DNA of 30,845 nucleotides from Candidatus Nomurabacteria bacterium CG_4_9_14_0_2_um_filter_32_10 (GCA_002788475.1 PFRK01000037.1:1-30845), one strand, 5' to 3'. Shown: positions 378-30,258, counted from the stretch's first letter. A program made the numbers and translations. The notes: a model not told the origin generated them from the letters alone.

Positions 378-1451
378 TTAAAAATTAAAAATTGGTGGAA
401 TAATACCGACACCGACTAAAGAATTAATTAAATTGAAAATTCCAAAAAATATTACAATGAGACCAGCCGTCTTAAAAAATATTCCAGATTGCGCTTTTTT
501 ATGAATTCCAAGAGAACTAAAACTCAAAAGTAAAAGCACTGGAAGTGTCCCAAGTGCAAAAGAAAACATTATTAACGATCCAGTTAAAAAACTCCCAGTA
601 GTCAAAGTATAAATCTGCATTGATTGAGTAAAGCCACAAGGTAGAAAAAATGTTACGACACCAACTAAAAGAGGAGTAAAAGTGTGATTAATATTCTTGA
701 GACCATGAACACGTTTACCAATAAAATTTGGAATAGTTGGCTGAAGTTTTTTAGCCCAAGGAAATATATCAAGGAGATTAATACCAAGAATAAGAAGAAC
801 AACTGCAACCAGAAAACTAAGAATAAATGTACTAGTTATACCAAGTTGAAATGCTGAACCAAGAGCACCAATAACACCACCTAGAACAAAAAATGATACA
901 AGCCGACCAGTATGAAATAAAATCTGTGGTCGTACTTTACTTGCTCTGAGTGGAATTGAAAGGTCATCTTCTTTGGCAAAATTTGCCGACATAGAAAGCA
1001 CAAGTCCTCCGACTACAGCCATACAGGTCGAGACAGAAGCAATAAGACCAATAACAAATGATGTACCATAACTAACTTTTGATGCATTTATTAAATTTAC
1101 AATACCAAGTTTTTGTAAAAGAATAAAAAAGACAATAAATGCTAAAGCTATAGGAATAGCAATCTTAAAATCAGACCACTTAACTAAATGATTTTGTTTT
1201 TCAAGAGATAACGTATAACCATGTGGTTTTAAGACTGTGGATAAATATTCAGCCACAGCTTCTGGTGTATCTCCTCCGCCAGAGGCGGATCCGCCTCTGG
1301 CGGAAAAATCTCCTGTTATTTCAACATTAAGATTTTTTAATGATGCTTTTGCACGAGAAATACCCGATACTTCACTCAATTCACTTTCAGTAAGTATTAC
1401 ACATGCATTACAATGCATACCGTTAACATGGAATGTATAAGTTTTTTGCAT
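378..1451 (-). CDS. HMA domain + TauE/SafE (DsbD_2-like) membrane protein
   Basis: N-terminal GMHCNAC metal-binding motif, then multiple TM helices with STCMAVVGG and FFLPCGFTQ motifs. Carries two in-frame insertions (939-962, 1275-1304). Confidence 0.85.
   Translation of the reverse strand: MQKTYTFHVNGMHCNACVILTESELSEVSGISRAKASLKNLNVEITGDFSARGGSASGGGDTPEAVAEYLSTVLKPHGYTLSLEKQNHLVKWSDFKIAIPIALAFIVFFILLQKLGIVNLINASKVSYGTSFVIGLIASVSTCMAVVGGLVLSMSANFAKEDDLSIPLRASKVRPQILFHTGRLVSFFVLGGVIGALGSAFQLGITSTFILSFLVAVVLLILGINLLDIFPWAKKLQPTIPNFIGKRVHGLKNINHTFTPLLVGVVTFFLPCGFTQSMQIYTLTTGSFLTGSLIMFSFALGTLPVLLLLSFSSLGIHKKAQSGIFFKTAGLIVIFFGIFNLINSLVGVGIIPPIFNF
1275..1304. repeat. Family A 30-bp palindrome, in frame in the HMA-TauE gene (SARGGSASGG)
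   Basis: Perfect palindrome tccgccagaggcggatccgcctctggcgga. Confidence 0.95.
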
Positions 1452-1515
1452 TATTCTATCATATAGTATCTCTGTAAAAATTCATAATCTACTTCAAAAA
1501 AACAATTCATGAAGA

Positions 1516-2427
1516 TTATATATTACATCCCCCACCTTGTTGCTGTTTTGGTAAAATAATTTGAGAAGAAACACTTTTATATCCTTGTGTACTGGAATAA
1601 TTAATACCTAATATTTCTTCTGAGTTCACATCTTTCCATTCAATACCTTTATTCTTCATATAAATCGCGATAGTTATATATGCATCAGAAAACCAATAAG
1701 AATTCACTACCAGAGCAGTTTTCCACATATCTTGTTCACTAACCCCTTGTGAAGCCATTAACTCCAAAAGTCCAAGCATCGCCATACCATGATTACAATC
1801 AGGGAAATGAGTTGAGTTACCACAACATGGTCTATATATACCTCTAGAAATTTTATCTACAAGAGTTTGCTGTTCTTTAGTTAATGTGACTAATGAATGA
1901 CGACTATAATGATCCATGGGCTTCCCTTTAGCTAATGTCCAACCACCAGTGGATGCAAAATTCCCTGCTTCGCTGTATGCTGGATTCATCATTTCTCCTT
2001 TCTCTAGAATAGGATTTTTATTAGCTAGTCCAAGCGCCCAAAACAAATTTAAGAGATACCCAGAATTTTCTTTAGTAATTTTTAGTTTGCCATTATTTTG
2101 ATCCAGAAGAAGTTTCTTATATTCATCAGTAAATTGTCCTCTACTTTCATATATCACTTTAAACTTTTTAGAATCAATAGTTCCGCTATTTATGAGTTGA
2201 ACTCCAAGATCTCCCCAGACTATCGGCAATGTCACGCCCTGAGATAGAAGTACATTTTCCTCTAAACTTGATAATAACAATGTTTTATCTTGATTATGCA
2301 CAATACCTATTTCTTGTTGCATTTTAACTTTTAACTCTTTTGTATATATCCAAGCACCAATAATAACTAAAAATATAATCAGAATATTTACAGGAAAAAT
2401 ATAATCTTTTGATAATTTTATTTTCAT
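1516..2427 (-). CDS. Membrane-anchored hypothetical protein with RPCCGNSTHFPDCNHG motif
   Basis: 303-aa ORF with one N-terminal TM segment, a Cys/His cluster and a C-terminal GGGC; lies inside the copper cluster. Confidence 0.75.
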   Translation of the reverse strand: MKIKLSKDYIFPVNILIIFLVIIGAWIYTKELKVKMQQEIGIVHNQDKTLLLSSLEENVLLSQGVTLPIVWGDLGVQLINSGTIDSKKFKVIYESRGQFTDEYKKLLLDQNNGKLKITKENSGYLLNLFWALGLANKNPILEKGEMMNPAYSEAGNFASTGGWTLAKGKPMDHYSRHSLVTLTKEQQTLVDKISRGIYRPCCGNSTHFPDCNHGMAMLGLLELMASQGVSEQDMWKTALVVNSYWFSDAYITIAIYMKNKGIEWKDVNSEEILGINYSSTQGYKSVSSQIILPKQQQGGGCNI

Positions 2428-2431
2428 ATAT

Positions 2432-3211
2432 TTAGATAAAGAAAATTAAGATACCAATAATAATCATTACGAATCCTGCCCACAACTTTACTTTACTTGT
2501 ATTGGTATTTTTCCATTCTTGAACCTTTGTAAGAAGAGTTTTATCTGAAGATATAAACAAAACGAAAACTAAAGGAATAATAAGAATAAGATTATAGAGA
2601 ATTAAATAACCAAACCCAGAGAAGTAAGTCACTTGATCACGAAGAAGTCCAATCACCATTAAGTATGGTCCCCCCATACAAGGAAATTGACAAATACCGA
2701 CAAAAATTCCAAGCCCAAATGCCGCCAGCATTGATGAACGTTCCATTAATTTCCCCATAGCTTTTTTAGTGAAAGAAGGAATTTTTAACTTAATCGGAAA
2801 ATTCGGAAAAAAATAATTAAGAAGATTTATAAGTCCAAAAACAATCAAAAGAGTTGCTCCTAATTTCCCCATAAAATGTGGGGTATTAAAAAGGTGCAAT
2901 ACTTTTAAAATTCCAAGACCAATAAGAAGATAAGAAACAAAAATTCCAGCAACATAAATTCCACCAATTTGTAATATCTTTTTTCTCGTCATTTGCATTC
3001 CAAAAAGAAAGGCAATAGTTATAAGAAGGATCGAAAACGAACAAGGATGGACACTATCTAGAAGCGCAGAAATTAACATAAGAGGCAATAACCACGTTCC
3101 TTGTTTACTAATGCTCCAGATTATAGATGAAGTTGCAGGATTATTTTTTAGAATAATTATGCTAATAATAGCAATAAGCAAGATACCAATTGTAATTATA
3201 ATTTTTTTCAT
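2432..3211 (-). CDS. CcdA/DsbD-family thiol-disulfide transfer membrane protein
   Basis: Multi-TM protein with two membrane Cys motifs, DSVHPCSF and CQFPCMGGPY. Confidence 0.75.
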   Translation of the reverse strand: MKKIIITIGILLIAIISIIILKNNPATSSIIWSISKQGTWLLPLMLISALLDSVHPCSFSILLITIAFLFGMQMTRKKILQIGGIYVAGIFVSYLLIGLGILKVLHLFNTPHFMGKLGATLLIVFGLINLLNYFFPNFPIKLKIPSFTKKAMGKLMERSSMLAAFGLGIFVGICQFPCMGGPYLMVIGLLRDQVTYFSGFGYLILYNLILIIPLVFVLFISSDKTLLTKVQEWKNTNTSKVKLWAGFVMIIIGILIFFI

Positions 3212-3216
3212 ATAAT

Positions 3217-3741
3217 TTAAGGTGTTACTCTCGCTTTAATCTCAAACTGAAGTTTATTACCTTCAGAATCTTCAAGATAAATAAATCTATCAATCATTCC
3301 AACACCAGCTGGACCATGAGCGTTAGGATCATATATAACTTCAATATCTGCAGACTCTCCAGCTTTTATTGTTTTATTTAATTTTGGAACAACTCCCATA
3401 CCTTGCATACCAAAAGGACCATTTTTATTTCCACCAGGCTCTATAAAGTAAGCACGTGTACACATACAAGAAGTAGTTAAACTCGGAATTAAAATATCTA
3501 GACTAGTTCCATTGGTAACTTTAAATGTTTTACTTACATCTCCATCTTTCATAGAGATTGTACCAAAATCATAGAGTATCTCTGATGTAATTAATCGGTC
3601 TTTTATTTCACTTATTTTACTTACTTTACTAGAATCACTAGGTAATGTTAATGACATTATATTTTTACTACCCCCATACATAAGTAATAACAATGCACCC
3701 AAAATAGCAAGTATCCATATAATTATTGTTTTTGTTTTCAT
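3217..3741 (-). CDS. DUF1573-like Ig-fold protein
   Basis: N-terminal signal/TM, YDFGTI, TSCMCT and YDPNAHG motifs. Confidence 0.7.
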   Translation of the reverse strand: MKTKTIIIWILAILGALLLLMYGGSKNIMSLTLPSDSSKVSKISEIKDRLITSEILYDFGTISMKDGDVSKTFKVTNGTSLDILIPSLTTSCMCTRAYFIEPGGNKNGPFGMQGMGVVPKLNKTIKAGESADIEVIYDPNAHGPAGVGMIDRFIYLEDSEGNKLQFEIKARVTP

Positions 3742-3834
3742 AAAATTTAAATTAAAATTAGATAAGAAAAAAATCTTTGACTAAAAGATTTTTTAAACAC
3801 CTAAAAAACCCCAAAAGAGCAATTAAGGTGAAAA

Positions 3835-4230
3835 TTATGAAAAAGATGGACTATTTTCTAAAAGAGAAAGCCAATTAATTATTCCTTGTTGAAAAGTATA
3901 TAATTTTTTATTATCCAGAGGATATTTCCATCTATAAAAATATCGTTTTTGATTTGAAGAGTTTTGTTCATTAAAAAAATATAAAATTATTCCTAGTATT
4001 AAGAAAGAAAAAATAAAAAAAGTCGAAAAAGTTATATTTGAAAATTGATGCCAATCATTTATATGATCAAGAATGTTTTCACATATTGAAGAACCATTTT
4101 GAGTATAAGGACAATTAACCATAGAAGTTTCAAACATATGATTGAATTCAAATAAACCAAAAATCCCTACACCTATGTAGGCAAGTAAAATAAAAATACT
4201 AATTAAAAATTTTTTATTTTGTAAAATCAT
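3835..4230 (-). CDS. Small membrane protein with Cys/His loop
   Basis: Two TM segments flank NHM...CPY...CENILDHINDWH. Confidence 0.6.
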   Translation of the reverse strand: MILQNKKFLISIFILLAYIGVGIFGLFEFNHMFETSMVNCPYTQNGSSICENILDHINDWHQFSNITFSTFFIFSFLILGIILYFFNEQNSSNQKRYFYRWKYPLDNKKLYTFQQGIINWLSLLENSPSFS

Positions 4231-4285
4231 ACTAATAACTATATTCTTAACTCTTTAATTTATTTTAATAATTTTTATATAAAAA

Positions 4286-4669: not shown

Positions 4670-4692
4670 AAATTTTATATATTTAATTATAA

Positions 4693-4938
4693 TTAGTTGC
4701 TCAAATCTTTTTTCTTTTCTTCAAATTCTTTTTTTTCTATTTCACCTTTAGCATATCTCTCTTTCAAAATATCCAATGCTTTTTTACTACTATCTATTCC
4801 ATTTGTTTTATTATTACGAACAAGCCAAACAATAAAATAAATAATTACTGCCCAAAATAGAATCATCATAATTCCACCCCCAAACCAACCCATCATACTA
4901 TCCCAACCACTATAACCATTATATATTCCGTACATCAT
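4693..4938 (-). CDS. SHOCT-domain small membrane protein
   Basis: Met/Gly-rich N-terminus, one TM, C-terminal [21 protein letters not shown]. Confidence 0.85.
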
Positions 4939-4994
4939 AATTTTTTTAAATTAATTAATAATCTTTTTTTACCTCTTTTAATAAATTTCGACTT

Positions 4995-7298: not shown

Positions 7299-7301
7299 TT
7301 T

Positions 7302-11596: not shown

Positions 11597-13429
11597 TTAT
11601 TTCTTAAAACGATTATTTTTAATATTTTCCTTTCTTTTATTTATTTCGTTTATTTTTTTCAAAATTTCTATTTCTTCTTTCTTTCCTTTTAAATTTTGTA
11701 AATCCATCATTTTTTCCGCTAATTCTTCATTTAAATATTCCTCTTCTACATTCAGTAACATTTCATTTATATCTTTATCTAAGTTTTCATTATTTGAATA
11801 AAATTCTTCTGCCTCATAAATTAAATCTTCCTTAATATTTTTATAAATTTCTTTTGCTTTATTTAATTTTTTAAAGATTAACTCTGGGTCTATAATTCTA
11901 TTTTTTATACCTGTCTGTCCGATAGGAAGGCTCTCTTGCCAAAAAGCTATCCCTAAAAGTCTACGTTCAATAGGATCTTTCCTCATTTTTTTCCCTATAT
12001 TCTCTTTAGCAATTTTTGTTTCTTCAGTTTCAGATTTTAACTCCGATTCAACTTTTTTCAGATCTTCTATCAAAGCATCTTCAGCTATACCTGATTTATT
12101 ACTAATAAGTTTAATAAAATATGATTTTTCAATTGAACTTTCAATTGAATCAACATATGGTAATATTCTTTCTTTTATTTCTCTTCCTACTAATCTCGCT
12201 GAATCTAAACGATTTTTATGTGTATCTTCTTTATTATTATTTAAAATTTTATCTAAAATAAATTCTATTATATGTTTTGAATTGCGAATCGCTGCATGCC
12301 ATGCATCCACTCCCTGCCTACCGGCAGGCAGGCATTTTCCAGAAATTAAATCTGCTGGATCAACACCTTCTGGTAAAGAGACAACCTTTACATCCATTCC
12401 AAAAGAAAGAGCGATTTTGCCAGCTCGTGTTGATGCATTAAATCCTGCTCGATCAGCATCAAAAGCAAGAACTATATTAGTGGATAAACGACGTAATAAT
12501 CCTAAATTTGAAATAACATTTTCTTTGGAAACCGTAGAGTCTGAAAGTGCTGTACCTGAAGTAGCAACAGTATTTCTGAAACCAGCCTGATGAGATAAAA
12601 CTAAATCCATCTGTCCTTCAACTAAAATAGAAAAATTATTCTTACGAATAGAATCCTTCGCTTTATCTAATCCATAAAGAATTGCAGACTTACTAAAAAT
12701 TGGAGTATCAGGACTATTTAAATACTTGGCTTGTTCATATTTGAAATCTTCTCCACCAGAGGCGGATCCGCCTTCGGCGGAAAAAATCCTACCAGAAAAA
12801 GCAGTAATGCGACCACTCGAATCTGAAATTGGAAACATAATTCTACCTCGAAACCTATCATACATTCCCTTCTCAGTTTTTTTAGTTAGACCAGCAAGTT
12901 CAATCTCTTTATCAGAAAAACCATTTTTTTGAAGATAATTATATAATTCACGCCAATCATTTTTTACAAATCCAATCCTAAAATCTTTAATTGTTTTATC
13001 TTCTAAACCCCTTCCTTTCAAATAAAGAAGTACCTCTTTACTTCCTACTAAATTCTTTTCAAAGAATTTAGTAGATTCTTCCATAACTCTATACAATCTT
13101 TCTTTTTCACCTTCTTTTTCTCTACTAAATCCTGCAAGCGAAATTCCTGCTCTTTCAGATAAAATTTTTAATGCACCTTTAAAATCAAGCCCCTCAAATT
13201 CTTCTATAAAAGTAAAAATATCACCTTTAGCCCCACAACCAAAACAATAATAACTAGCACGATCTGGAGACACAAAAAAAGACGGAGTTTTTTCGTTATG
13301 AAAAGGGCATTTGGCTTTGAAGTTTGTACCTACCCGATCTAATTTTATGTAGGAAGAGACTATTTCTTCAATTGAAAGCCTCTCCTTAATTTGTTGAACC
13401 GGAGAGTTCGTCCCGTTAGAGATTTTCAT
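11597..13429 (-). CDS. dnaG: DNA primase
   Basis: CPFHNEKTPSF...YCFGC zinc-binding domain, FRGRIMFPI, KYLNSP, VEGQMD and AFDADRAG Toprim motifs. Confidence 0.97.
   Translation of the reverse strand: MKISNGTNSPVQQIKERLSIEEIVSSYIKLDRVGTNFKAKCPFHNEKTPSFFVSPDRASYYCFGCGAKGDIFTFIEEFEGLDFKGALKILSERAGISLAGFSREKEGEKERLYRVMEESTKFFEKNLVGSKEVLLYLKGRGLEDKTIKDFRIGFVKNDWRELYNYLQKNGFSDKEIELAGLTKKTEKGMYDRFRGRIMFPISDSSGRITAFSGRIFSAEGGSASGGEDFKYEQAKYLNSPDTPIFSKSAILYGLDKAKDSIRKNNFSILVEGQMDLVLSHQAGFRNTVATSGTALSDSTVSKENVISNLGLLRRLSTNIVLAFDADRAGFNASTRAGKIALSFGMDVKVVSLPEGVDPADLISGKCLPAGRQGVDAWHAAIRNSKHIIEFILDKILNNNKEDTHKNRLDSARLVGREIKERILPYVDSIESSIEKSYFIKLISNKSGIAEDALIEDLKKVESELKSETEETKIAKENIGKKMRKDPIERRLLGIAFWQESLPIGQTGIKNRIIDPELIFKKLNKAKEIYKNIKEDLIYEAEEFYSNNENLDKDINEMLLNVEEEYLNEELAEKMMDLQNLKGKKEEIEILKKINEINKRKENIKNNRFKK
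11910..11930. repeat. 21-bp degenerate CCTGCC/GGCAGG-family insert in dnaG (LPIGQTG)
   Basis: cctgtctgtccgataggaagg; removing it gives the in-frame WQES-IKN. Confidence 0.55.
12182..12211. repeat. Eroded copy of the rpoD insert in dnaG (RLDSARLVGR)
   Basis: 19/30 nt identical to 11372-11401; all 11 differences are transitions. Confidence 0.6.
12313..12332. repeat. 20-bp palindrome within a 7-codon insert in dnaG (CLPAGRQ)
   Basis: cctgcct-a-ccgg-c-aggcagg, one mismatch. Confidence 0.85.
12752..12781. repeat. Family A 30-bp insert in dnaG (SAEGGSASGG)
   Basis: tccaccagaggcggatccgccttcggcgga. Confidence 0.95.
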
Positions 13430-16400: not shown

Positions 16401-17108
16401 CTTTTCAGTAAGAATTTTTAATTTATTTAAATCAATATTCTTAAAGATAGAATAAATAGCTTCAGCGCCAATATTTGCTTCAAAACAAGTACCATATTTT
16501 AAGGAATAATGGTGAAAAGAAATTTCATTTAAAACTTTTCCTTCATAAATTTCCAAAATTTCTTTTTTAGTACTAGAAAATAAATTTTTTAATTTTTCAC
16601 GAGTGTCATCATCAGCTGAATTTTTTAATTTACTTTTATATTCTTTTTCTAAATTTTGAATAATTATTTCTTTTTCATCTTCGTGAACTTTAACTATTAT
16701 ATATCCAGCAAAATATATTACCTTTTCGAGATCAGATACAGAAATATTCAAAAGAATACTCATACGAGAAGGTACTCCTCTTAAAAACCAAATATGAGCA
16801 ACGGGTGTCGAAAGTTCAATGTGTCCCATTCTTTCTCTTCTCACAATAGAACGAGTAACTTCTACTCCACATTTTTCACAGATAATATCTTTATAACGAA
16901 TCCGACGATATTTTCCACAATAACATTCATAGTCTTTTTCTGGTCCAAATATCTTTTCATCAAAAAGACCACCACGTTCAGATCTACCTGTACGATAATT
17001 TATCGTTTCAGGTTTAGTGACTTCTCCATAAGACCAATCCTTTATTTGTTCAGGTGATGCCAGCTTGAGCGAAATGTAATCAAAATCTGTTTTATTTAAA
17101 GTTTTCAT
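13500..17108 (-). CDS. rpoC: RNA polymerase beta' subunit
   Basis: Zinc finger CYCGKY...CEKCG, NADFDGDQMA active-site motif, GEPGTQLTLRTFH. Confidence 0.99.
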   Translation of the reverse strand: MKTLNKTDFDYISLKLASPEQIKDWSYGEVTKPETINYRTGRSERGGLFDEKIFGPEKDYECYCGKYRRIRYKDIICEKCGVEVTRSIVRRERMGHIELSTPVAHIWFLRGVPSRMSILLNISVSDLEKVIYFAGYIIVKVHEDEKEIIIQNLEKEYKSKLKNSADDDTREKLKNLFSSTKKEILEIYEGKVLNEISFHHYSLKYGTCFEANIGAEAIYSIFKNIDLNKLKILTEKMIEKTSMVEKEKLQKRLSLIRAMTYAGIRPEWMFLTVIPVIPPVLRPMVALDGGRHATSDLNDLYRRVINRNNRLKKLKEINAPDVILRNEKRIIQEAVDALIDNSIAKQNDSAAMSQSQKRPLKSLSDNLKSKQGLFRQNLLGKRVDYSGRSVIVVGPELNLNQCGLPKHMALELFRPFVISKILQAELAFNIRGANKLIEERTPEVWAMLEEVIEGKYVLLNRAPTLHRLGIQAFNPILIEGNAIQVHPLVCQAFNADFDGDQMAVYVPLLKESQAEARELMAANKNLLKPQNGDPIVHPSKDVVLGSYWMTKSVDGEFGEGKYFSSPNTAITAYEYGAVSLRAKIKVMATDTHKYKKFGGEFFDTSVGKLLFNSILPNDFFYVGDEMTQKRISSLVDELIMHYGVDDTPPILDKIKSFGFKYSTFSGTTWGLDNVKVPVEKEKIIAEGRKLEEKIITEWNEGLFSEEERYQKIIEVWTYAKKELEKVLPNSLDKNGSTYDLFISGARGSMTSLLQMNGMKGLIQNNQGSVLEFPIIPSYLEGLSPIEYFVTTHGARKGASDTALNTAKAGYLTRRLVDVAQDVVITEEDCGTKNGKIVTRENISGIEIPLSKNIRGRVLAGDLKDKDGKVIYKKGFLITKEEAYNIEGAGFEEVFVRSPLTCRTIHGLCQMCYGLDLGRNHLVDLGEAVGIIAAQAIGEPGTQLTLRTFHAGGVAGTDITTGLPRIEEIFERRIPKNPAVVSETDGEIYEIKDKDGKEKIIKVLSDSKVDGKSNEIEYAVLFRRTPIVKVGQKIRKGELLTDGSADIAEIYKFGGKELVEEYIIREINKVYELQSASISRKHTEIIIRQMFSRRKIKDAGETNFSIGDIVENTAFIEENIRIVKLNQQEAKAETIVLGITEVSLRTKSWLSAASFQNTNRVLIENAIKGGIDSLRGLKENVIIGRLIPAGTGFKSRVILPEEE

Positions 17109-20100
17109 ATTTTTTCAAATTAATATCAAGCGCAAGTCCTCGTAAATAATTGAGTAATACATTGAACGATGCGGTAGAATTTGGTGGTTTAATAGGTTCA
17201 TTTTTGATAATGGAATCAAATGTCGCAGATCGACCAAGAATGTCATCAGATTTAATAGTAAGCATCTCTCGTAATGTATAAGCTGCACCATAACCTTCTA
17301 ATGCCCACACTTCCATTTCTCCAAATCTCTGTCCTCCACCTTGAGCTTTTCCTCCTAAAGGTTGTTGAGTGATAAGTGAATAAGGTCCAATAGAACGCAT
17401 ATGAATTTTATCTTCCACCATGTGATGAAGTTTCAACATATACATATAACCAACAGCAATATCTTGAGAAAAAGCTTCTCCTGTACGCCCATCAAAAAGT
17501 TTTAATCTTCCATTTTCTGGAAATCCAGCTTTTTTTAATTCTTCTTTTATTTCTTCATGTCCTGCTCCTAAAAATGGAGGAACAATAGCTTGATATCCTA
17601 ACGTGTTAGCCGCCATACCAAGATGCATTTCCAAAATTTGTCCCAAATTCATACGAGAAGGAACACCAAGTGGTGAAAGAATTATATCAACCGGTGTACC
17701 ATCTGTTGTATATGGCATATCTTCTTCTGGAAGAATTCTTGAAATAACTCCCTTATTGCCATGCCTACCAGAAAGTTTATCCCCAACTGAAATATTTCTA
17801 ATTTGAGCAACTTCGATAACAATTTTTTTAATAATACCCGCCTCAAGGGTATGACCTAAGTCACGAGAGAAAATTTTAATACCTATAATGCGACCACGTT
17901 TACCGTGCTCCATTCGTAATGATGTATCTTTAACATCACGTGCTTTTTCAGCAAAAATTGAACGTAATAATCTTTCTTCTGGAGTAAGTTCAGTTTCTCC
18001 TTTTGGTGTAATTTTACCAATTAAAATATCATTTTCTCTGACTTCAGCTCCAATACGAACAATACCATCTTCATCCAAATCTTTAAGTTTTAATTCTCCA
18101 ACATTTGGAATATCACGAGTAGTAATCTCAGGTCCAAGCTTAGTATCACGAACAATACAAACAAATTCTTCAAGATAAATAGATGTAAACTTACTCTTTT
18201 TTATAAGACGCTCAGAAATAATTATAGCGTCTTCATAATTTAACCCGAACCAAGATAAGAAAGCAATAAAGACATTCTGCCCAATTGAAATTTGCCCATC
18301 CACTGTGCTAGTGGTGTCAGCCAAGACATCTCCTTTCTTTATTTTTTGACCGACATCTACTGTAGGTCGTTGATGAAATGCAGAAAAATTATTGTTTCTT
18401 AAAAAATTAACAAGCGTGTAAGTTTTTTCTTTTTCTCCTTTAGTTTTAATTATTATTTTTCTAGCATCTAAATAAGATACAATTCCATCTTCTTCTGCAA
18501 TAACAATTCTTCCAGAATCTCGAGAAGCTAGTGTTTCTATACCCGTAGCTACAAGTGGAGCTTCAGGAAGAACGCAGGGTACAGCTTGTTTCTGCATGTT
18601 AGATCCCATAAGTGCTCTATTCGCATCATTATGTTCTAGAAAAGGAATCATAGAAGTTGCGATAGAAAAACCTTGGTTAGCTGCAACATCAATAAAATCA
18701 ACTTCTTCACGATGAATCATACCAGGATTAGTTTTTACTCTCGCAGCAACTTTTTCATCTGTTATCTTTCCATTTTCATCATAAGAAATTCCAGCGTGTG
18801 CAATATTATATTTTTCTTCCTCAAGTGCATTCAAATATTGAATTTCATTTGTGATTTTACCATTCTTAACTTTCATATATGGAGTTTCAATGATTCCAAA
18901 ATCATTTATTTTTGCATAAGTAGAAAGATGTAAAATAAGTCCAATGTTTGGACCCTCAGGTGTGTGAATAGGACAAACTCTTCCATAGTGGGAAGGATGC
19001 ACATCACGAACTTCAAGACCTGCACGCTCACGAGTAAGACCACCAGGTCCAAGAGCTGAAAGTAAACGTATATGCTCTATTTCAGCCAACACATTTTCTT
19101 GACTCATAAATTGTGAAAGCTGGTTTGTAGTAAAAAATTCTTTTATACGAGCTTGTAGTGGGCGCTGATTTATAATATGAATTGGCATCGCAGTATCAAC
19201 ATCAATAATAGACATTCTGTCTTGAATATTTCTCTTTATCTGCATCATACCAGTACGCACTTTTTGTTGAAGCATTTCTCCAACAAATCGAACACGTCTT
19301 TGACCTAGGTGATCTATATCATCAGACTTCGCACCTACTGTATTATTCAAAACAATAATATTTGTAATTACTGTCATTAAATCCTCTTTAGAAAGAGTCC
19401 TGCGAGCAAGTTCTTCATCATCTAATACTTTTTCAAAACGTTTATTAAATCTATATCGTCCAACAGGAGAAAGATCATATCTCTCAGGAGTAAACAAAGA
19501 ATTAATAAATTCTTTAGCATTATCAGCTGTCGCCATATCTCCATCTCTTAAACGTTTGTATATTTCAATATAAGCATCATTTAATGTCTTAGCTACGTCT
19601 TTTGCTAAACAAGCTTCAATCGCTTCTTTACATATATTTTCCAAGCCAGAGGCTTGTCCGCCTTTAGCGGAAAATACTTCTAACATCATTTCATTGGTGC
19701 TATAACCCATAACACGTAATAATGTAGTTGCAGGAAACTTTCTTTTTTTATCTATCCTTACATATATTGCACCATCAGATTCTGATTCTATCTCAATCCA
19801 AACTCCACGAGCTGGAATAATCTTTGCACCAAAATATTTTTTACCTTTACTTTCAGATTCCGTAAAAAAAACTCCGAAAGAACGTGCGAGTTGCGGCACA
19901 ATAATACGTTCTACTCCATTTATAATAAAAGTCCCGTGTGGAGTCATCAAAGGAATCTCAGACATAAAAATCTCTTGTTCTTTGACAGTACCTAAAATTT
20001 TATTCGTTAACTTTACACGAGTTTTAAGAAGTCCTTGATATGAGAGTTTATTTATTTTAGCTTCATTTTCTTCACAATTTGGTTCACTAATAGAAAAAGA

Positions 20101-20304
20101 AGTAAAATCAAGCTCAAATTTTTTACCAGAATAATCTATGATCGGAGAAAATTCCTTAAAAACTTCCTTGATACCTTCTTCTATAAGCCATTTATAAGAT
20201 TTGGTTTGAGCTTCTATTAGATTTGGAAACTCTATTAAAGGTTTTTTATACCTCGCAAAATACTTCTTTGGACGCTTTTCTGTTTGCATGATTGATTTAA
20301 CCAA
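17092..20304 (-). CDS. rpoB: RNA polymerase beta subunit (alternative ATG start at 20289)
   Basis: GDKLSGRHGNKG, GGQRFGEMEVWALE and RALMGSNMQKQA motifs; about 1070 aa. Confidence 0.99.
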   Translation of the reverse strand: MVKSIMQTEKRPKKYFARYKKPLIEFPNLIEAQTKSYKWLIEEGIKEVFKEFSPIIDYSGKKFELDFTSFSISEPNCEENEAKINKLSYQGLLKTRVKLTNKILGTVKEQEIFMSEIPLMTPHGTFIINGVERIIVPQLARSFGVFFTESESKGKKYFGAKIIPARGVWIEIESESDGAIYVRIDKKRKFPATTLLRVMGYSTNEMMLEVFSAKGGQASGLENICKEAIEACLAKDVAKTLNDAYIEIYKRLRDGDMATADNAKEFINSLFTPERYDLSPVGRYRFNKRFEKVLDDEELARRTLSKEDLMTVITNIIVLNNTVGAKSDDIDHLGQRRVRFVGEMLQQKVRTGMMQIKRNIQDRMSIIDVDTAMPIHIINQRPLQARIKEFFTTNQLSQFMSQENVLAEIEHIRLLSALGPGGLTRERAGLEVRDVHPSHYGRVCPIHTPEGPNIGLILHLSTYAKINDFGIIETPYMKVKNGKITNEIQYLNALEEEKYNIAHAGISYDENGKITDEKVAARVKTNPGMIHREEVDFIDVAANQGFSIATSMIPFLEHNDANRALMGSNMQKQAVPCVLPEAPLVATGIETLASRDSGRIVIAEEDGIVSYLDARKIIIKTKGEKEKTYTLVNFLRNNNFSAFHQRPTVDVGQKIKKGDVLADTTSTVDGQISIGQNVFIAFLSWFGLNYEDAIIISERLIKKSKFTSIYLEEFVCIVRDTKLGPEITTRDIPNVGELKLKDLDEDGIVRIGAEVRENDILIGKITPKGETELTPEERLLRSIFAEKARDVKDTSLRMEHGKRGRIIGIKIFSRDLGHTLEAGIIKKIVIEVAQIRNISVGDKLSGRHGNKGVISRILPEEDMPYTTDGTPVDIILSPLGVPSRMNLGQILEMHLGMAANTLGYQAIVPPFLGAGHEEIKEELKKAGFPENGRLKLFDGRTGEAFSQDIAVGYMYMLKLHHMVEDKIHMRSIGPYSLITQQPLGGKAQGGGQRFGEMEVWALEGYGAAYTLREMLTIKSDDILGRSATFDSIIKNEPIKPPNSTASFNVLLNYLRGLALDINLKKYENFK
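19642..19671. repeat. Family A 30-bp insert in rpoB (SAKGGQASGL)
   Basis: caagcc-aga-ggcttg + tccgcc-ttt-agcgga, with compensatory stem changes. Confidence 0.9.
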
Positions 20305-21711: not shown

Positions 21712-21761
21712 TCCACCTGAGGCAGCCTGTCCGCCTTTGGCGGAGATCAGCCTCTGGCTGA
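21712..21761. repeat. Intergenic cluster of family A 15-bp hairpin units
   Basis: tccgcc-ttt-ggcgga (21730-21744), tcagcc-tct-ggctga (21747-21761) and a degenerate unit at 21712-21726. Confidence 0.85.
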
Positions 21762-21822
21762 AATGTTTGGCAGCGCTACGACCTTAAATGATTAACTGCA
21801 CTGCTGTAATAATTATACACAA

Positions 21823-21860
21823 CTCGCCAAAGGCGAGCAAGCTTGCCTGCCTCTGGCAGG
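21823..21860. repeat. Composite double hairpin directly after the rpsP stop
   Basis: ctcgcc-aaa-ggcgag, caagcttg, cctgcc-tct-ggcagg. Confidence 0.85.
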
Positions 21861-23118: not shown

Positions 23119-23125
23119 TAGCTTA

Positions 23126-25093
23126 ATGAAGAACAAAAAACAGAAAATATATAAAGCACTGCAAGGTACCATATCTATTACCTCAAAGGGCACTGGATAT
23201 GTCAAAGTTCCTGATTATGAACAAGATCCAGAGATTGATTTTAAAGATCTAAATACAGCACTTCATGGAGATATTGTTGAAATTATATTAAATAAAAAAG
23301 GATATAGACGCCTTACAGGAAGAGTATCAAGAATAATTTCACGTGCAAAGATTGGTTTTGTGGGAGTGCTGGAGGAGGTCAGTCCTCCTTCAGGAGGACT
23401 GACCTCCTCCAAATTCTTTCTAAAACCTGACGATACAAAGATGTATACAGATATTCTGATACCAGAAAAATTTTTAAAGGATGCAAAAACCGGCCTGCCT
23501 GCGCAGGCAGGACAAAAAGTTTATATAGAAATAACTTCTTGGACAGATGCATCTAAAGCACCAGAAGGTAAAGTAATAAAAATTCTAGGTCAACCCGGAG
23601 AAAATAGTGCAGAAATGCATGCTATTGCAATAGAAAAAGGTTTTGACAGTGATTTGCCACAAAAGGTAGAAGAAGAAGCAAAAAAAATTAAAACTCTAGG
23701 AATTAAAGAAGGAGACTTCGTTGAACGACGTGATTTTAGAAAAACTCTTACCTTTACTATCGACCCTGATGATGCAAAAGATTTTGATGATGCTATTTCT
23801 TTTAAAGAAATAGATAGCAATACATATGAAATAGGCATACATATAGCCGACGTAACACATTATGTAAAAATTGGGAGTGAATTAGATAAAGAAGCAAGAA
23901 ATAGAGGTACTTCCGTATATTTAGTCGATAGAACAATACCAATGCTTCCAGAGGCACTTTCAAATGACTTATGTTCTTTAATACCAAACAAAGATAGGCT
24001 CACCATGAGTGCTGTTTTTATTTTAGATAAAAATGCAAAAGTTAAAAAGGAATGGTTTGGAAAAACTATCATACATTCTCAAAAAAGATTCACTTATGAA
24101 GAGGCAGAAGAAACTATCAAGAAAGATTCAAAGCCATTACATAAAGAACTTCTTATTTTAAATAATCTAGCAAAAAAATTAACAAAAGAAAGATTTGCAA
24201 ATGGAGCAATATCTCTCGAGCAGGAAGAAGTAAAATTTATTTTAGATAAAAATGGAGTACCAATAAAAGTTATAAAAAAAGAACGAGGTAATTCTAACAA
24301 ATTAATAGAAGAATTTATGCTTTTAGCAAACAAAAAAGTAGCGGAAACAATTTCAAAAGGTACAAAGAAAGAAGGTGGTGTATTTGTTTACCGTATTCAC
24401 GACAATCCTAGTAAAGAAAAAATGACTGACTTAGCTTTCTTTTTAAAAAGTTTAGGATATAAAATATCTTTAGTAGATGGAGTTATACCTACATATGAAA
24501 TAAATAGTCTTTTAAAGAGTCTAGAAGGAAAAAATGAAGAAGATACAGTAAATCGAGCCGTCATACGTTCTATGGCAAAAGCAATTTATTCTACCAAAAA
24601 TATCGGACATTACGGTTTAGCATTTGAATATTATGCTCATTTTACTTCCCCTATTAGAAGATACCCAGACATAGTGGTACATAGACTTTTAAACGATTAT
24701 CTACAAGGAATAAAAGTAGGAAAAGAAAAATTAAATATATACGAAGAAATTTCAATAAAAGCATCAGAAAGAGAGAAATTTGCTTCCGATGCTGAACAAG
24801 CTTCTATAAAATATAAACAAGTTGAATATATGTCTTCTCGTATTACAGAAGTTTTCGAAGGAATCATAAGTGGAATAACAGAATGGGGTATCTATGTAGA
24901 AGAGAAAGAAACAAAATGTGAAGGACTAGTGCGAGTGCGAGACATGGAAGATGGCTTCTATGTTTTTAATGAAAAGAAATTAGAATTAGTCGGACAAAAG
25001 AATAAAAAAAGATATCGTTTAGGTGATCAAGTCAAAATAAAAATTAAAAATATTGATCTAAAAAGAAAAACGATAGATTACACATTAGTATGA
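23126..25093 (+). CDS. rnr: Ribonuclease R (RNB family)
   Basis: TIDPDDAKDFDDA catalytic motif, HFTSPIRRYPD, C-terminal S1 domain. Confidence 0.95.
   Translation: MKNKKQKIYKALQGTISITSKGTGYVKVPDYEQDPEIDFKDLNTALHGDIVEIILNKKGYRRLTGRVSRIISRAKIGFVGVLEEVSPPSGGLTSSKFFLKPDDTKMYTDILIPEKFLKDAKTGLPAQAGQKVYIEITSWTDASKAPEGKVIKILGQPGENSAEMHAIAIEKGFDSDLPQKVEEEAKKIKTLGIKEGDFVERRDFRKTLTFTIDPDDAKDFDDAISFKEIDSNTYEIGIHIADVTHYVKIGSELDKEARNRGTSVYLVDRTIPMLPEALSNDLCSLIPNKDRLTMSAVFILDKNAKVKKEWFGKTIIHSQKRFTYEEAEETIKKDSKPLHKELLILNNLAKKLTKERFANGAISLEQEEVKFILDKNGVPIKVIKKERGNSNKLIEEFMLLANKKVAETISKGTKKEGGVFVYRIHDNPSKEKMTDLAFFLKSLGYKISLVDGVIPTYEINSLLKSLEGKNEEDTVNRAVIRSMAKAIYSTKNIGHYGLAFEYYAHFTSPIRRYPDIVVHRLLNDYLQGIKVGKEKLNIYEEISIKASEREKFASDAEQASIKYKQVEYMSSRITEVFEGIISGITEWGIYVEEKETKCEGLVRVRDMEDGFYVFNEKKLELVGQKNKKRYRLGDQVKIKIKNIDLKRKTIDYTLV
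23370..23411. repeat. 42-bp palindrome in frame in rnr (EEVSPPSGGLTSS)
   Basis: Perfect 20-bp arms tggaggaggtcagtcctcct / aggaggactgacctcctcca around TC. Confidence 0.95.
23494..23511. repeat. 18-bp perfect palindrome in frame in rnr (GLPAQAG)
   Basis: cctgcctgcgcaggcagg; removing it restores K-T-G-Q-K. Confidence 0.95.
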
Positions 25094-26976: not shown

Positions 26977-27035
26977 AAGTAAAACAAAAAATCAAACAAC
27001 GTTATGTTATGTGTTTTTCTTTTATTATAAATTTA

Positions 27036-27377
27036 TTATCCTTTCCACGCAGACATTATAAAAAGCAAAATAAGTATCATAGGTACAAAAACAAATAATA
27101 TAATTAATAAAAAAGAAATACCAACTACTTTGGAAGTCTTTTTTAGGGCACTATTTTCTTGTCCAGGTAATATTATGCCTTTTTTTTCCAATCTGATGTT
27201 TCGTATTCCACGAATAAATAAAAGTATTCCATATAACAAAAGTAATATAAATGGTAAAATAACCAAAAGTTCCCAAAAGTTTGTCGGTATTTTTGTATTT
27301 ATTAGTGAAAAAACTCCAAAAAAAGTAAGAATCATTCCAATTAATATAAAAACCTCATTTTTATAATCTTTTTTCAT
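27036..27377 (-). CDS. Small multi-TM hypothetical protein
   Basis: 113 aa with three hydrophobic segments. Confidence 0.6.
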   Translation of the reverse strand: MKKDYKNEVFILIGMILTFFGVFSLINTKIPTNFWELLVILPFILLLLYGILLFIRGIRNIRLEKKGIILPGQENSALKKTSKVVGISFLLIILFVFVPMILILLFIMSAWKG

Positions 27378-27457
27378 AATAATATTATTAAATTAATAAT
27401 TACCCTTTACTTTTTTATCATATCATATATATTCAAAGTTAATCATTAAAAATTACA

Positions 27458-27479
27458 CATTTAAGCCATGGCTGATATG
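27458..27479. repeat. CCATGG-centred palindrome downstream of the cas2-like gene
   Basis: Perfect core agccatggct (27464-27473) with imperfect cat...atg extension. Confidence 0.5.
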
Positions 27480-27490
27480 AGGATAAATGG

Positions 27491-27871
27491 CTATAATTTC
27501 TTTATATAAGATTTTGCTAGTTTAAATGTCTTGCAGTTATCTCCTATTTTTATTTCTTTTAAGTAATCTAAAAAGTCTTTTGGTAATGGAGAAGGCCCTA
27601 CCCAAACACTTTTTTGAATCATTATATAACCAAACTTTATTAGTTGTCTTCGAAACCAATCTCTTTCTTTCTTTTTATCAGATGGAATGTCATACATCAC
27701 AATCAAATTTTTAGAAGAATCTTTATTAAAAGGAGAAATAAAGGTAACATTATAGAAAGTCCTCTTTCTATTTTCTTTTTTTGCACGACTTTTTCTCCCT
27801 TCTGAAAAAATCGGAATACCAAAAGAATTTACTTCTATCCCTTTATAAAATAATCTCTTTTTTGAATTCAT
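27491..27871 (-). CDS. Solo Cas2-like / PaaX-central-domain protein
   Basis: LIVMYDIP...ERDWFRRQL..FGYIMIQKSVW matches the Cas2/VapD/PaaX ferredoxin-fold pattern (YDI and QxSV). No cas1 and no array in the window. Confidence 0.8.
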   Translation of the reverse strand: MNSKKRLFYKGIEVNSFGIPIFSEGRKSRAKKENRKRTFYNVTFISPFNKDSSKNLIVMYDIPSDKKKERDWFRRQLIKFGYIMIQKSVWVGPSPLPKDFLDYLKEIKIGDNCKTFKLAKSYIKKL

Positions 27872-27878
27872 ATAAAAA

Positions 27879-27887
27879 ACTATATCA
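27879..27887 (-). promoter_or_regulatory. Extended -10 (TGATATAGT) 7 nt before the cas2-like ATG
   Basis: TGn + TAnnnT. Confidence 0.5.
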
Positions 27888-27889
27888 CA

Positions 27890-27925
27890 AAATCCCCATA
27901 TACACCATGGCGTATATGGGGATTT
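27890..27925. repeat. 36-bp CCATGG-centred palindrome upstream of the cas2-like gene
   Basis: aaatccccatatacaccatggcgtatatggggattt, 17 of 18 pairs matched. Confidence 0.9.
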
Positions 27926-27951
27926 ATTACAATTCTTTTACAACTTCCTAT

Positions 27952-30258
27952 TTATTTTGCAATAGCTACTGCATCGTCTAATTTGACAGAAAGAAGCTTG
28001 GAAGATCCATCATTCCCTATAGTTACCCCATATAACGTACCAGCACGAGACATTGTCTCACGATTATGAGTGACAACAATAAGCTGAGAGGCCCCTGAGA
28101 GTTTTTCTAACATATCTCCATATTTGCGAGAATTTGATTCATCCAAAGCAGCATCCGTTTCATCAAGAACTAAGAATGGTGGTGGATTTACTTGTGACAT
28201 AGCAAAAAGAAGAGCAATAGATGTGAGTGATCTTTCCCCTCCTGAGAGTGCATTTAATTCTTTTACTTTTTTATGTGGGAGAGAAACATTTATCTCAATA
28301 CCCTGTTCAAAAACAATTTCATCTTCATCTCCTTCCTCTCCTTCTTCTTCCTTTCCTCTCTTCTTTTTATTTTCAGTTGTAACAGAGAGAAAGCCTGTTC
28401 CACCATCAAACATTAATGAGAAAAATTTATCAAATTCTATATTTATTTTTTTAATACCTTCTTTAAACTCTACATCAATTTTTTCTTTCAAATCCACCAT
28501 AAGTGTACGAAGTGACTCTATACTTACGACTAAATCTTCCATTTCTTTTGCCAAAAAATTATCTCTCTCTGAAACTTCTTCAAACTCTTTTATTATCTCA
28601 GACCCACCACCCAAACCAACATCTTCCAATTTTATCTTAATGCGTTCGATTTTTCGTCTTAACTCCTCCTGTTCTATTCTGTTTATTATGACCTCTCCGC
28701 CAAAGGCGGATCCGCCTTCAGTGGAAAAATTTTTGTAAGTTAATATCTCACTGCCAATAAGTATTTCACCTTCTTTTATCTCATTTTTAAAGGCTTCTGA
28801 TTCTTTTGATAAAGACTCCTCTTTTATCGATATGAGCCCCAAAGAAGAAGATAATTCTTGCTGTTTAACCCTAAAATTAAACTTTTCTTTTTCTTTTAAA
28901 TGTAAAGCCTCATTTTCTTGGTTAATCTCTTTTTTTAATATTTCTATTTTTTCAAAAATTTTCTTTTCTTCATCTGTAATATTTTGCATTTCAAGCAAAA
29001 TTTCTTGCTGATTCTTTTTTAACTCAGAATTCTCTGAAAATATAGTTTCTGAATGGTCTGGCTGGGATAGGGACCCAGAGAACCGAGAACCTGAAGAAAT
29101 TATATTTCCAGAGAATTCTTTTAAAATATTCTGAATTCTCAAAAGAATAATCTTGATTTCTGCTGCACTATCTTCTACAATAGCTATTTCTATTTCAGAA
29201 TTAATTTCATCAAATATAGCCTTTATTTCTTCAGGGTTTTTTATCGAAACTTCTGGAATTTTTTCACTTCTCCTCTCTTCCATTTCTATCATTCCTTCGA
29301 TTCTTCCCAATTTACGTTCTATTTCATTCTTAACATTACGAATTTCACTTATTTTTTTCTCAAAGATTTTTAATTCTTTTTCCCCGCCTACATCGCTATG
29401 CATAGCATTGTAGGCAGGTTTTTCATTTTCTTCTATATCTGAAATGTTTTTATTTATATCTCCTAATTCTATCTCTATTTTGCTCTTTTCACTAAGTAAA
29501 CTGGACTGCTCTTTTTCTAAATAAATACTTTCTTTCTTTAAATATTCTTTATATAAAGATAAAAGTGACACCTGCATTTCTTTTGCTTTCTCAAATTTAT
29601 CTACTTGTTTTTTTAAAAAATTCAAATGTGGAGCATTTTCTCGACGTAAAAGAGAGACCTCCTTCATATTATTAGTAGTCCTTTCTAGTTTACGTTGTGC
29701 TTCTTTTATTTTATATTGGTAAATTTTAAGTCCAAGAGCATCTTCTACCATCTCTCTCCTATCTCTAGGAGATGCATTCAATATCCTATCTGCTTCACCT
29801 TGGGAAATGATGTGATGCCCAGAAGAACCAATATTAACTGATGATAAAAGATTATTAATATCTTTTAATCTCACCTCCGAGCCATTCAAAATGTATTTAT
29901 TTAACCCATCAGAAAAAACTTCACGAGAAATTGAGATGACATCGTAATTTAAATTAAAATTTTCACCTGTTTCATTAGAAAGTTTAAAAACTTTATCAGA
30001 GTTATCAAAATATATCGTAACAACTGCACGTGAACTTTTTGGCAAATTTTTAGATCCTTTAAAAATTAAATCAGATCCTGATGTTCCACGCATTGACTTC
30101 ATTGATTGTTCTCCTAAAACAAAGCGAAGTGCTTCTACAACATTTGACTTACCAGATCCATTTGGACCTACTATAGAAATAATAGGATTCTGGAATTCCA
30201 AAATTATTTTTTTTGAAAAAGATTTAAAACCATTAATTTCAAGATTCTTTAATCGCAT
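27952..30258 (-). CDS. smc: Short SMC-family ATPase (768 aa)
   Basis: GPNGSGKSN Walker A, LSGGE signature, FLVLDETDAALD Walker B/D-loop and VVTHN; adjacent to rnc. Confidence 0.9.
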   Translation of the reverse strand: MRLKNLEINGFKSFSKKIILEFQNPIISIVGPNGSGKSNVVEALRFVLGEQSMKSMRGTSGSDLIFKGSKNLPKSSRAVVTIYFDNSDKVFKLSNETGENFNLNYDVISISREVFSDGLNKYILNGSEVRLKDINNLLSSVNIGSSGHHIISQGEADRILNASPRDRREMVEDALGLKIYQYKIKEAQRKLERTTNNMKEVSLLRRENAPHLNFLKKQVDKFEKAKEMQVSLLSLYKEYLKKESIYLEKEQSSLLSEKSKIEIELGDINKNISDIEENEKPAYNAMHSDVGGEKELKIFEKKISEIRNVKNEIERKLGRIEGMIEMEERRSEKIPEVSIKNPEEIKAIFDEINSEIEIAIVEDSAAEIKIILLRIQNILKEFSGNIISSGSRFSGSLSQPDHSETIFSENSELKKNQQEILLEMQNITDEEKKIFEKIEILKKEINQENEALHLKEKEKFNFRVKQQELSSSLGLISIKEESLSKESEAFKNEIKEGEILIGSEILTYKNFSTEGGSAFGGEVIINRIEQEELRRKIERIKIKLEDVGLGGGSEIIKEFEEVSERDNFLAKEMEDLVVSIESLRTLMVDLKEKIDVEFKEGIKKINIEFDKFFSLMFDGGTGFLSVTTENKKKRGKEEEGEEGDEDEIVFEQGIEINVSLPHKKVKELNALSGGERSLTSIALLFAMSQVNPPPFLVLDETDAALDESNSRKYGDMLEKLSGASQLIVVTHNRETMSRAGTLYGVTIGNDGSSKLLSVKLDDAVAIAK
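28696..28725. repeat. Family A 30-bp insert in smc (STEGGSAFGG)
   Basis: tccgccaaaggcggatccgccttcagtgga. Confidence 0.9.
29026..29119. repeat. Inverted-repeat-bounded segment inside smc
   Basis: 29026-29050 pairs with 29095-29119 (23/25); GC-rich core with ctggg/cccag hairpin and gagaacc x2. Confidence 0.55.
29383..29418. repeat. 36-bp palindromic insert in smc (PAYNAMHSDVGG)
   Basis: 15 of 18 pairs matched, centred on ATGCAT; ends are CCTGCC/GGCGGG on the coding strand; exactly 12 codons. Confidence 0.9.

Follow-up and report, generated by a model that had tools for sequence, protein, structure and literature searches.

A 30-bp double-hairpin element read in frame within core genes of a Nomurabacteria-like bacterium, and its occurrence at the end of a small GIY-YIG gene cassette

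What places nearly the same ten codons, in the same reading phase, into genes as different as rpoB, dnaG and smc? The question is raised by a 30,845-nucleotide stretch of Candidatus Nomurabacteria bacterium CG_4_9_14_0_2_um_filter_32_10 (GCA_002788475.1 PFRK01000037.1:1-30845), referred to here as the window, which is the entire 30.8-kb contig C35 of a 606-kb genome in 58 contigs with 31.7% GC. The source is a Nomurabacteria-like bacterium of the Candidate Phyla Radiation (CPR), of the ultra-small groundwater type, and the 24 sequencing runs that contain this genome are all DNA-type metagenomes from groundwater or aquifers. The repeated ten codons are 30-bp copies of an element, here called Family A, made of two abutting 15-nt hairpins. 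A sequence-only reading of the window had proposed that this element inserts at a specific target and that copies encoding a flexible linker are then retained by selection; the underlying observation is confirmed by the present analysis, and the interpretation is supported. The source genome is labeled G000 (contigs C1 onward), its relatives carry G numbers, and loci from metagenomes or metagenome-assembled genomes (MAGs) carry L numbers. Family A features of the window are as follows, with hyphens marking the insert boundaries in the peptides:

1275-1304, minus strand: perfect Family A dimer (two TCCGCC-N3-GGCGGA units) in the HMA/DsbD-like gene 378-1451, codons 50-59, F-SARGGSASGG-G
12752-12781, minus strand: Family A dimer in dnaG (11597-13429), codons 217-226, RIF-SAEGGSASGG-ED
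19642-19671, minus strand: Family A heterodimer in rpoB (17092-20304), codons 212-221, VF-SAKGGQASGL-EN
28696-28725, minus strand: slightly decayed Family A dimer (one unit with 2 mismatches) in smc (27952-30258), codons 512-521, NF-STEGGSAFGG-EV
1305-1307, minus strand: TTT codon (plus-strand AAA), the 5' half of the target; the same at 12782-12784, 19672-19674 and 28726-28728
21712-21761, no strand assigned: non-coding unit cluster between khpA and rpsP, with a degenerate unit at 21712, a TCCGCC unit at 21730-21744 and a TCAGCC/GGCTGA unit at 21747-21761

Precise insertion of a double hairpin at TTT^RAA

Allowing up to two mismatches, TCCGCC-N3-GGCGGA matches the window nine times, compared to 0.09 expected from shuffled sequences, and an Rfam scan of the window returned zero family matches. 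Reading the four coding copies directly confirmed that each is a 30-bp dimer of 15-bp units, and all four lie in frame within minus-strand open reading frames (ORFs). Every unit consists of a 6-bp stem built on a GCC/GGC core and closed by a 3-nt loop; as single-stranded DNA the copy at 1275 folds with -17.5 kcal/mol (z -6.7). Both stem variants pointed out earlier are present, namely CAAGCC/GGCTTG in rpoB, a compensated stem in the second unit of a copy that folds as two separate hairpins, and TCAGCC/GGCTGA at 21747. In the khpA-rpsP cluster a 2-nt spacer separates the units at 21730-21744 and 21747-21761, and related CTCGCC (21823) and CCTGCC (21846) hairpins come next, so that the whole cluster spans 21712-21860.

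Across the genome, 80 NNNGCC-N3-GGCNNN units with a paired 6-bp stem were counted, against 7-12 in shuffled genomes. Consecutive units exactly 15 nt apart were found in 20 cases, and the inclusion of degenerate partner units brings the number of dimers to 25. Fifteen of these lie in ORFs in the phase that reads Ser-Ala-x-Gly-Gly (SAxGG, phase 0), two occupy ORFs in another phase (one of these makes up a gene's final ten codons together with its stop region), a further one is in an ORF of doubtful status, and the remainder are non-coding. The intragenic share is thus about 60-70%. Non-coding DNA makes up ~9% of the genome but holds about one third of the dimers, an excess expected if most coding insertions get lost.

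The nearest relative, G010 (RpoB 92% identical), of which nearly the whole genome was fetched, served for the comparison of filled and empty sites. Thirteen of 14 alignable coding dimers are missing from it, and its empty sites read TTT^AAA (three cases), TTT^GAA (two), TTT^GAG, TTC^GGA and GTT^AAA. Clean filled/empty pairs (TTT^AAA, TTC^GGA, TTT^GGT) differ by exactly 30 bp with zero duplicated bases, and since the insert boundaries admit no shift, target-site duplication is ruled out. Within the window, the site at 1275 is empty in G010 (..GAA TTC^GGA GAT.., a difference of exactly 30 bp), and the dnaG site reads ATT TTT^AAA GAT. RpoB of 11 relatives lacks the ten residues; the closest of them (91-92% identical) have ..AF^E.. 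(GCA TTT^GAG), and the length of the loop varies among the 11. At the smc site G010 has just 18 nt (SNRDGA), following TTC. Because TTT (or TTC) already stands at the relatives' empty sites, the TTT codon is part of the target and not of the element; the empty orthologous sites also carry the R-A-A half, in agreement with the proposed target-specific insertion. At the level of aligned sequences, these comparisons demonstrate that Family A inserts as an exact 30-bp unit at T-T-T^R-A-A without target-site duplication, and that it has done so many times and recently in this genome.

The target was further defined from its flanks. Among the 15 in-phase copies of this genome the preceding codon is TTT in 11, and the following codon is AAA in six, GAA in four, GAG in two, GGA in two and GAT in one. 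The exact homodimer was also found in at least 120 metagenome contigs; flank, phase, RAYT, GIY-YIG and tRNA counts for this set were taken among the matches listed. Sixty-six confidently coding phase-0 copies from the listed matches give the following logo around the insertion point:

Position -3: T 53%
Position -2: T 85%
Position -1: T 61%
Position +1: purine 94%, never T
Position +2: A 92%
Position +3: A 71%

Flanks are thus clearly non-random, and the target is best described as approximating the palindrome TTT^AAA with tolerated variants, the consensus being TTT^RAA. The rule first suggested, TTT before and G after each copy, describes all four window copies (GGA, GAA, GAA and GAG follow) and fails beyond them: the base after the element is A in 6/15 copies of this genome and in 45/66 metagenome copies, so that TTT^G reflects a sampling effect. 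A sense/antisense bias of the TTT flank, 9:3 in this genome, is 4:7 in relatives and was rejected as not robust.

One target has been used repeatedly. The DnaG loop that follows SGRIF (window ~12740-12790) is a recurrent insertion hotspot across Patescibacteria, as seen in 80 DnaG orthologues (loci L013-L092). Family A inserts occupy this RIF^ loop in L048, L081 and L019, with independent gain in at least two other lineages, and at least five short insert families occur there by lineage: SAxGGSASGG, VPTPEGVGRPT, PSTSSGQA, LPAGRQ and PARPPGWSGAGG. LPAGRQ, from the MAG locus L075, is the reading of a CCTGCC-type hairpin family; in the window a CCTGCC-TACC-GGCAGG hairpin lies elsewhere in dnaG (12313-12328), and six more genomic copies (loop GGTA, TACC or TCT) are mostly located at gene ends.

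Covariation was assessed in 55 dimers (110 units), drawn from five relatives as well as this genome. Within 15-nt units, 96% of outer stem triplet cells are paired; folding the 30-mer as a single hairpin would lower this to 65%, which upholds the view that the 15-nt hairpin is the conserved unit. Fully complementary outer triplets were found in 98/110 units (shuffle mean 34, maximum 47), and both sides carry compensating bases in 48 of 60 non-consensus units (TCA/TGA, CCA/TGG, CCC/GGG, TCG/CGA, CAA/TTG), although several stem variants are amplified subfamilies and the compensated units are not independent events. Even so, the figures show that propagation is confined to paired stem variants. 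Heterodimers fold as two hairpins and not as one long hairpin of the REPIN type. The first loop is N-R-A (purine-rich) and the second T-Y-N (pyrimidine-rich); because this asymmetry is the same in coding and non-coding copies, it is a property of the DNA element.

Other palindromes were seen alongside Family A. A second in-frame family, AGG-N5-CCTCC-N4-GGAGG-N5-CCT, is present at window 23376-23405 (gene 23126-25093, plus strand), C7:17432 and C54:16197, with covarying stems and the peptide E-x-x-P-P-x-G-G-x-x-S. A third, GCCCGCAAYG.. (ARN..S..G), occurs at C21:8682, C27:3635 and C32:2054. In metagenomes, some Family A copies sit exactly in the middle of palindromes of other types, CCCTCCC..GGGAGGG and GGGCGGAGCT..AGCTCCGCCC (loci listed: L279:1534, L292:712). 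Finally, the minus strand of the window encodes at 27491-27871 a solo 126-aa protein that matches Cas2 and PaaX central (Cas2-like) domains (PF20803, 52 bits; TIGR01573, 34.8 bits); no cas1 gene or CRISPR array was seen beside it in the window.

Reading phase and translation of the coding copies

The four window copies all read S-[AT]-x-G-G-[SQ]-A-[SF]-G-[GL], and it had been argued that this phase is not forced by stop codons. For the element itself the argument holds: the perfect copy, a true palindrome, has no stop codon in any of its three frames (SARGGSASGG, PPEADPPLA, RQRRIRLWR). The target, however, excludes one phase. TTT^RAA sites in the coding sequences of this genome are split evenly between phase 0 (50%) and phase 2 (50%), and none is in phase 1, which would require a TAA or TGA codon; selection therefore chooses only between two phases. 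Even so, the SAxGG phase is taken by 15/17 coding copies here, by 12/14 from five relatives and by 66/77 of the listed metagenome matches. Pooled, 93/108 coding copies (~86%, in place of the 'always' of the sequence-only reading) are in phase 0, compared to a fraction of ~0.51 expected from the target (P ~1e-14). The target alone as the cause was therefore rejected: it explains part of the phase bias, not all.

A second comparison bears on translation. Dimers with a TCAGCC..GGCTGA unit, which would place a TGA stop in phase 0, are found in that phase in 0/22 cases, compared to 27/33 for the other dimers (Fisher 3.5e-10). The absence of TGA-bearing units from phase 0 indicates that coding copies are translated and selected, as had been suggested for linker-encoding copies; they would thus be read by ribosomes, and selection appears to disfavor the Pro-Pro-x-Ala-Asp reading in comparison with Ser-Ala-x-Gly-Gly. 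Translational bypass and RNA-level excision were weighed as alternatives and discarded, since matching take-off and landing codons are missing and phase 0 contains no stop-bearing unit.

Genes that host in-frame inserts include rpoB, dnaG, gyrB-like, smc, HMA and adenosyltransferase genes, and the inserts are absent from the orthologues. Surviving coding copies form ten-residue Ser/Ala/Gly loops. In an AlphaFold model of the adenosyltransferase (27 orthologues, mean pLDDT 85) the insert lies in coil with pLDDT <50, and such data show surviving copies to occupy loops that are variable or predicted to be disordered. On metagenome contigs, two paralogous membrane-protein genes (L284:37-66, 778-807) begin M-N-E-(E/N)-M-SAxGGSAxGG-KK, with the insert directly after an ATG codon.

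A small GIY-YIG cassette and the possible movers of Family A

The sequence-only reading had proposed no partner enzyme; the present evidence favors a single-domain GIY-YIG nuclease. This genome has three such ORFs (84-87 aa, on C28, C30 and C33; PF01541, 51-65 bits; similar to UPF0213 structures), and relatives have one to seven such genes each. In five relatives (G007, G019, G042, G053 and G060) mini GIY-YIG genes have a Family A dimer at a distance of 9-125 nt, where 0.14-0.33 such cases are expected (P <=2.5e-5). In homologues of the G007 gene, 65-86% identical and sampled from eight contigs of different CPR lineages, the ATG is preceded at 15-25 nt by a Family A dimer in 8/8 cases, and all eight share one order. 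A tRNA 5' fragment ending ..AGCTCAGTT or ..CCCTT is directly followed by the dimer (first unit TCC or TCA, second unit TCA, CCA or TGA-stem) and by 5-8 further tRNA bases; the ATG stands ~10-15 nt later, and an intact tRNA (Ile, Asn or Val) overlaps the end of the ORF. The gene encodes a single-domain GIY-YIG protein of 80-95 aa, and the intact tRNA is regenerated on the right side. This layout fits insertion of the cassette at the tRNA D-loop, ..CAGTT^GG.., in which case the double hairpin would be its left end and tRNA bases 1-17 its right end. On gene order and sequence, the eight loci establish that in related CPR bacteria a small GIY-YIG cassette has the Family A double hairpin as its left end. 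The cassette dimer of L413 matches the C41:5863 copy in 30/30 bases, and this genome also contains two gene-less scars consisting of a tRNA fragment and a unit (C27:3820 and C41:10791). Among the metagenome matches listed, a tRNA stands within 300 nt of 4/43 non-coding and 0/77 coding copies.

The mini GIY-YIG genes of this genome have surroundings of their own. The gene at C30:6804-7058 directly follows the apparent 3' end of a tmRNA-like or tRNA-like gene and is bracketed by the inverted heptamers ACCCGCC/GGCGGGT; those on C28 and C33 are bracketed by 14-bp inverted repeats of the ATCCCGAACGAAAT and ATCCCGTTAGAGAT types.

We consider it probable that Family A is a gene-less mobile DNA element, derived from the cassette end and mobilized in trans by a nuclease that recognizes the hairpin. 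Solo 30-bp copies would then be miniature derivatives of the cassette end, moved by a GIY-YIG nuclease acting on hairpins in single-stranded DNA, by analogy with the single-domain nuclease Ssn at its NTS/SRM hairpins.

Several observations weigh against this explanation. None of the three mini GIY-YIG genes of this genome has a Family A unit within 300 nt; the genome with the most copies and the most recent burst thus has its own GIY-YIG genes unlinked to the element. The three are just 45-48% identical to the cassette-type nuclease, a close homologue of which was not found in this assembly, so that action in trans by a paralogue that has diverged, or by a gene that was lost or left unassembled, must be assumed. 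The 31 best-scoring GIY-YIG loci of relatives lack Family A, and therefore only one GIY-YIG subfamily is linked to it. At the 120 listed exact-homodimer loci GIY-YIG genes are no more common than in the background, and none is adjacent. Furthermore, a nuclease alone does not explain how the 30-nt insert is copied and sealed, and we know of no transposition shown for Ssn enzymes.

A shared copy adds a further difficulty. One Family A heterodimer, in a PduO-type adenosyltransferase gene (C12:13665-13694 in G000; C36 in G010), is common to both species, and all other aligned relatives, including G006, lack it and read ..TF^G... The copy shows 0/30 differences while the rest of the gene is 24.8% diverged and its third positions 44.8% (P ~2e-4 to 3e-3), a degree of conservation that pure selfish drift would not predict. 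In addition, heterodimers place the TCC unit first, followed by the CCA unit, relative to the gene in 9/9 cases. This order and the nucleotide-perfect shared copy hint at a constraint or strand bias.

A bolder form of the nuclease explanation, which we regard as possible but doubtful, assumes a novel route: an Ssn-like nuclease would see folded hairpins on single-stranded DNA and open T-T-T^R-A-A sites, into which the element would be copied without duplication. Full cassettes would in this way enter tRNA D-loops and the 30-nt miniature would enter Phe-Lys or Phe-Glu codon pairs. If this were true, Family A would be the smallest known transposable unit and would provide a steady supply of new ten-residue loops in essential CPR proteins, and the perfect old copy would reflect ongoing recognition by the enzyme.

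An alternative mover is a RAYT (REP-associated tyrosine transposase). Family A would then be an element of the repetitive extragenic palindromic (REP) or REPIN type, moved by a RAYT-like HUH Y1 transposase through the single-strand peel-and-paste mechanism of IS200/IS605. HUH Y1 chemistry does place inserts next to a fixed short sequence without duplication, and six Y1_Tnp ORFs carrying HUH and Tyr motifs are encoded in this genome, the highest-scoring of them reaching 66.8 bits to the NCBIfam RAYT model (cut-off 80):

RAYT-like Y1 transposase genes: C5:1539-2219, C6:2643-3308, C39:678-1349, C48:8601-9293, C36:1-708, C13:13583-14278

Up to 11 RAYT-like genes per genome were found in the 60 relatives searched, and genomes with RAYT have a mean of 2.2 Family A dimers compared to 0.7 for those without (rho 0.25, a weak correlation). 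However, GCC-N3-GGC units bracket 0/36 RAYT loci; almost all RAYT genes inspected have different hairpins of their own (ACAGGC, ACAGGG, GGAAGC, CAAGG and similar), and RAYT was rejected as the partner. A RAYT hidden Markov model run over ~800 kb around the 120 listed Family A copies gave one match, which is non-adjacent. G047 has four dimers and no RAYT, and G042 has eight dimers and one RAYT with another hairpin. Moreover, the Family A flanks are constrained on both sides and not on one only. Taken together, mobilization by a RAYT is improbable. Most of the six RAYT-like genes of this genome are bracketed by their own inverted 20-25 nt hairpins in a REPtron layout, those on C13 and C39 have copies of their own hairpins inside the ORF, and RAYT-type hairpins are also dispersed inside other genes (e.g. 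C41:4633, C37:328). A search for mobilizers among G000-specific genes was abandoned, as the 148 ORFs without a G010 match are too numerous to inform. Phages are no obvious carriers of Family A, since the viral collection gave just two exact matches.

Somewhat less likely still is that the hairpins are kept for a DNA or RNA role in the host, for example as pause, stability, recombination or nuclease-control sites, with mobility incidental and the peptide a by-product. The identity of the G000/G010 shared copy over 30 nt in an otherwise diverged gene would follow naturally, as would stems maintained by compensatory changes and the many non-coding copies that lie, REP-like, 0-50 nt from gene 3' ends. 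Yet species of a single genus carry anything between 0 and 24 copies, insertion sites lack conservation among close relatives, and the proteins that receive the inserts are unrelated; a hairpin required for mobility alone would produce covariation just as well, and the evidence from conservation comes down to one shared copy.

The last alternative, that there is no mobile element and that Gly/Ser linkers converged or an assembly or linker artefact was read (the peptide is of low complexity and the palindromic 30-mers contain GGATCC, a BamHI site), is already refuted: copies are identical at synonymous positions although built from the rarest codons of the genome (TCC, GCC and GGC, each <0.5%), so that the likeness resides in DNA and not in a converged peptide, the same 30-mer occurs in non-coding DNA and in tRNA fragments, it recurs in the metagenome contigs from many independent studies and in named MAGs, and it is common to two species with diverged flanks.

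Family A among known hairpin repeats and GIY-YIG cassettes

Several known systems share single properties with Family A and its cassette. Phage T4 SegB, a free-standing GIY-YIG homing endonuclease encoded in a tRNA region, has a DNA-binding extension, cuts double-stranded DNA and homes in a homology-dependent manner; to our knowledge it has neither a terminal double hairpin nor dispersed miniature copies. The likeness is that of a small GIY-YIG nuclease gene lodged in or among tRNA genes and spreading as a cassette (PMC2330249). Insertion at a fixed short target without duplication recalls miniature elements of the IS200/IS605 type, whereas miniature inverted-repeat elements of DDE transposases differ, since no direct target-site duplication is present at any clean Family A site.

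The closest match on the enzyme side is Ssn, a single-domain GIY-YIG nuclease of ~94 aa (Chenal et al. 2025, PMC11893778). It recognizes NTS/SRM hairpin repeats in folded, single-stranded form and cleaves within a few nucleotides of the hairpin. The ssn genes are flanked by the NTS/SRM repeat, their authors see a likeness to insertion sequences, and CGTC-type repeats linked to Ssn also occur within Rickettsia genes (PMC11893778). As in the CPR cassette, an 80-95 aa GIY-YIG protein without other domains is encoded by a gene accompanied by a short GC-rich hairpin repeat that is also scattered genome-wide. The mini GIY-YIG proteins of CPR bacteria resemble UPF0213 proteins (1zg2) in sequence. Family A differs from the SRM repeat (CGTC-ATTCCC..GGGAAT-C, PMC11893778) in that TCCGCC-N3-GGCGGA has no CGTC tag and no ATTCCC..GGGAAT core. 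It is also a gap-free pair of 15-nt hairpins, and its nuclease cassette splits and restores a tRNA at the D-loop.

REP, BIME and REPIN sequences are likewise short GC-rich palindromes in many copies, often in inverted pairs, with family-specific covarying stems (PMC3733652; Bertels and Rainey 2011, PMC3116915), and some intragenic REP copies are in frame within replication and repair genes (Di Nocera et al. 2013, PMC3733652). REPs are defined by a GTAG (or CGTC) tetranucleotide at one end of the stem-loop (PMC3733652). Family A has neither tag, its units starting with TCC, TCA, CCA or CCC and ending with the complement; it never flanks a RAYT, is mostly intragenic, has hairpins that abut without a spacer and uses a defined TTT^RAA target. 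Rickettsia palindromic elements (RPE), as summarized in PMC3733652 from Ogata et al. 2000, provide a further parallel, being palindromic selfish DNA in frame in many unrelated, often essential genes of a small genome. According to that summary the RPE insert is tolerated as an extra surface peptide, and the same applies to Family A. Its length sets it apart, 10 residues compared to the 20-30 given there for most intragenic REP/RPE dimers and groups (PMC3733652). Family A and RPE have no sequence relation and belong to different phyla, and for Family A a target site and a single preferred phase are defined. Full-text literature searches returned nothing on such elements in CPR bacteria and no paper describing Family A.

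Family A offers an unusually clean system for studying how short hairpin repeats spread without a RAYT: a 30-nt substrate, a six-base target, exact boundaries, dozens of dated filled/empty pairs and a candidate 81-residue enzyme with the same hairpins at its gene end. The core proteins of CPR bacteria, including RpoB, DnaG, GyrB-like and SMC proteins, have repeatedly been lengthened by selfish DNA. In annotation these inserts resemble low-complexity linkers, in phylogenetics they constitute homoplastic indels at hotspots, the DnaG RIF^ loop being one example, and for protein engineering their insertion sites chart permissive loops. Compared with intragenic REPs, RPE and Ssn-linked repeats, Family A differs in four respects: an abutting double hairpin, a defined target, one preferred reading phase and a cassette that splits a tRNA.

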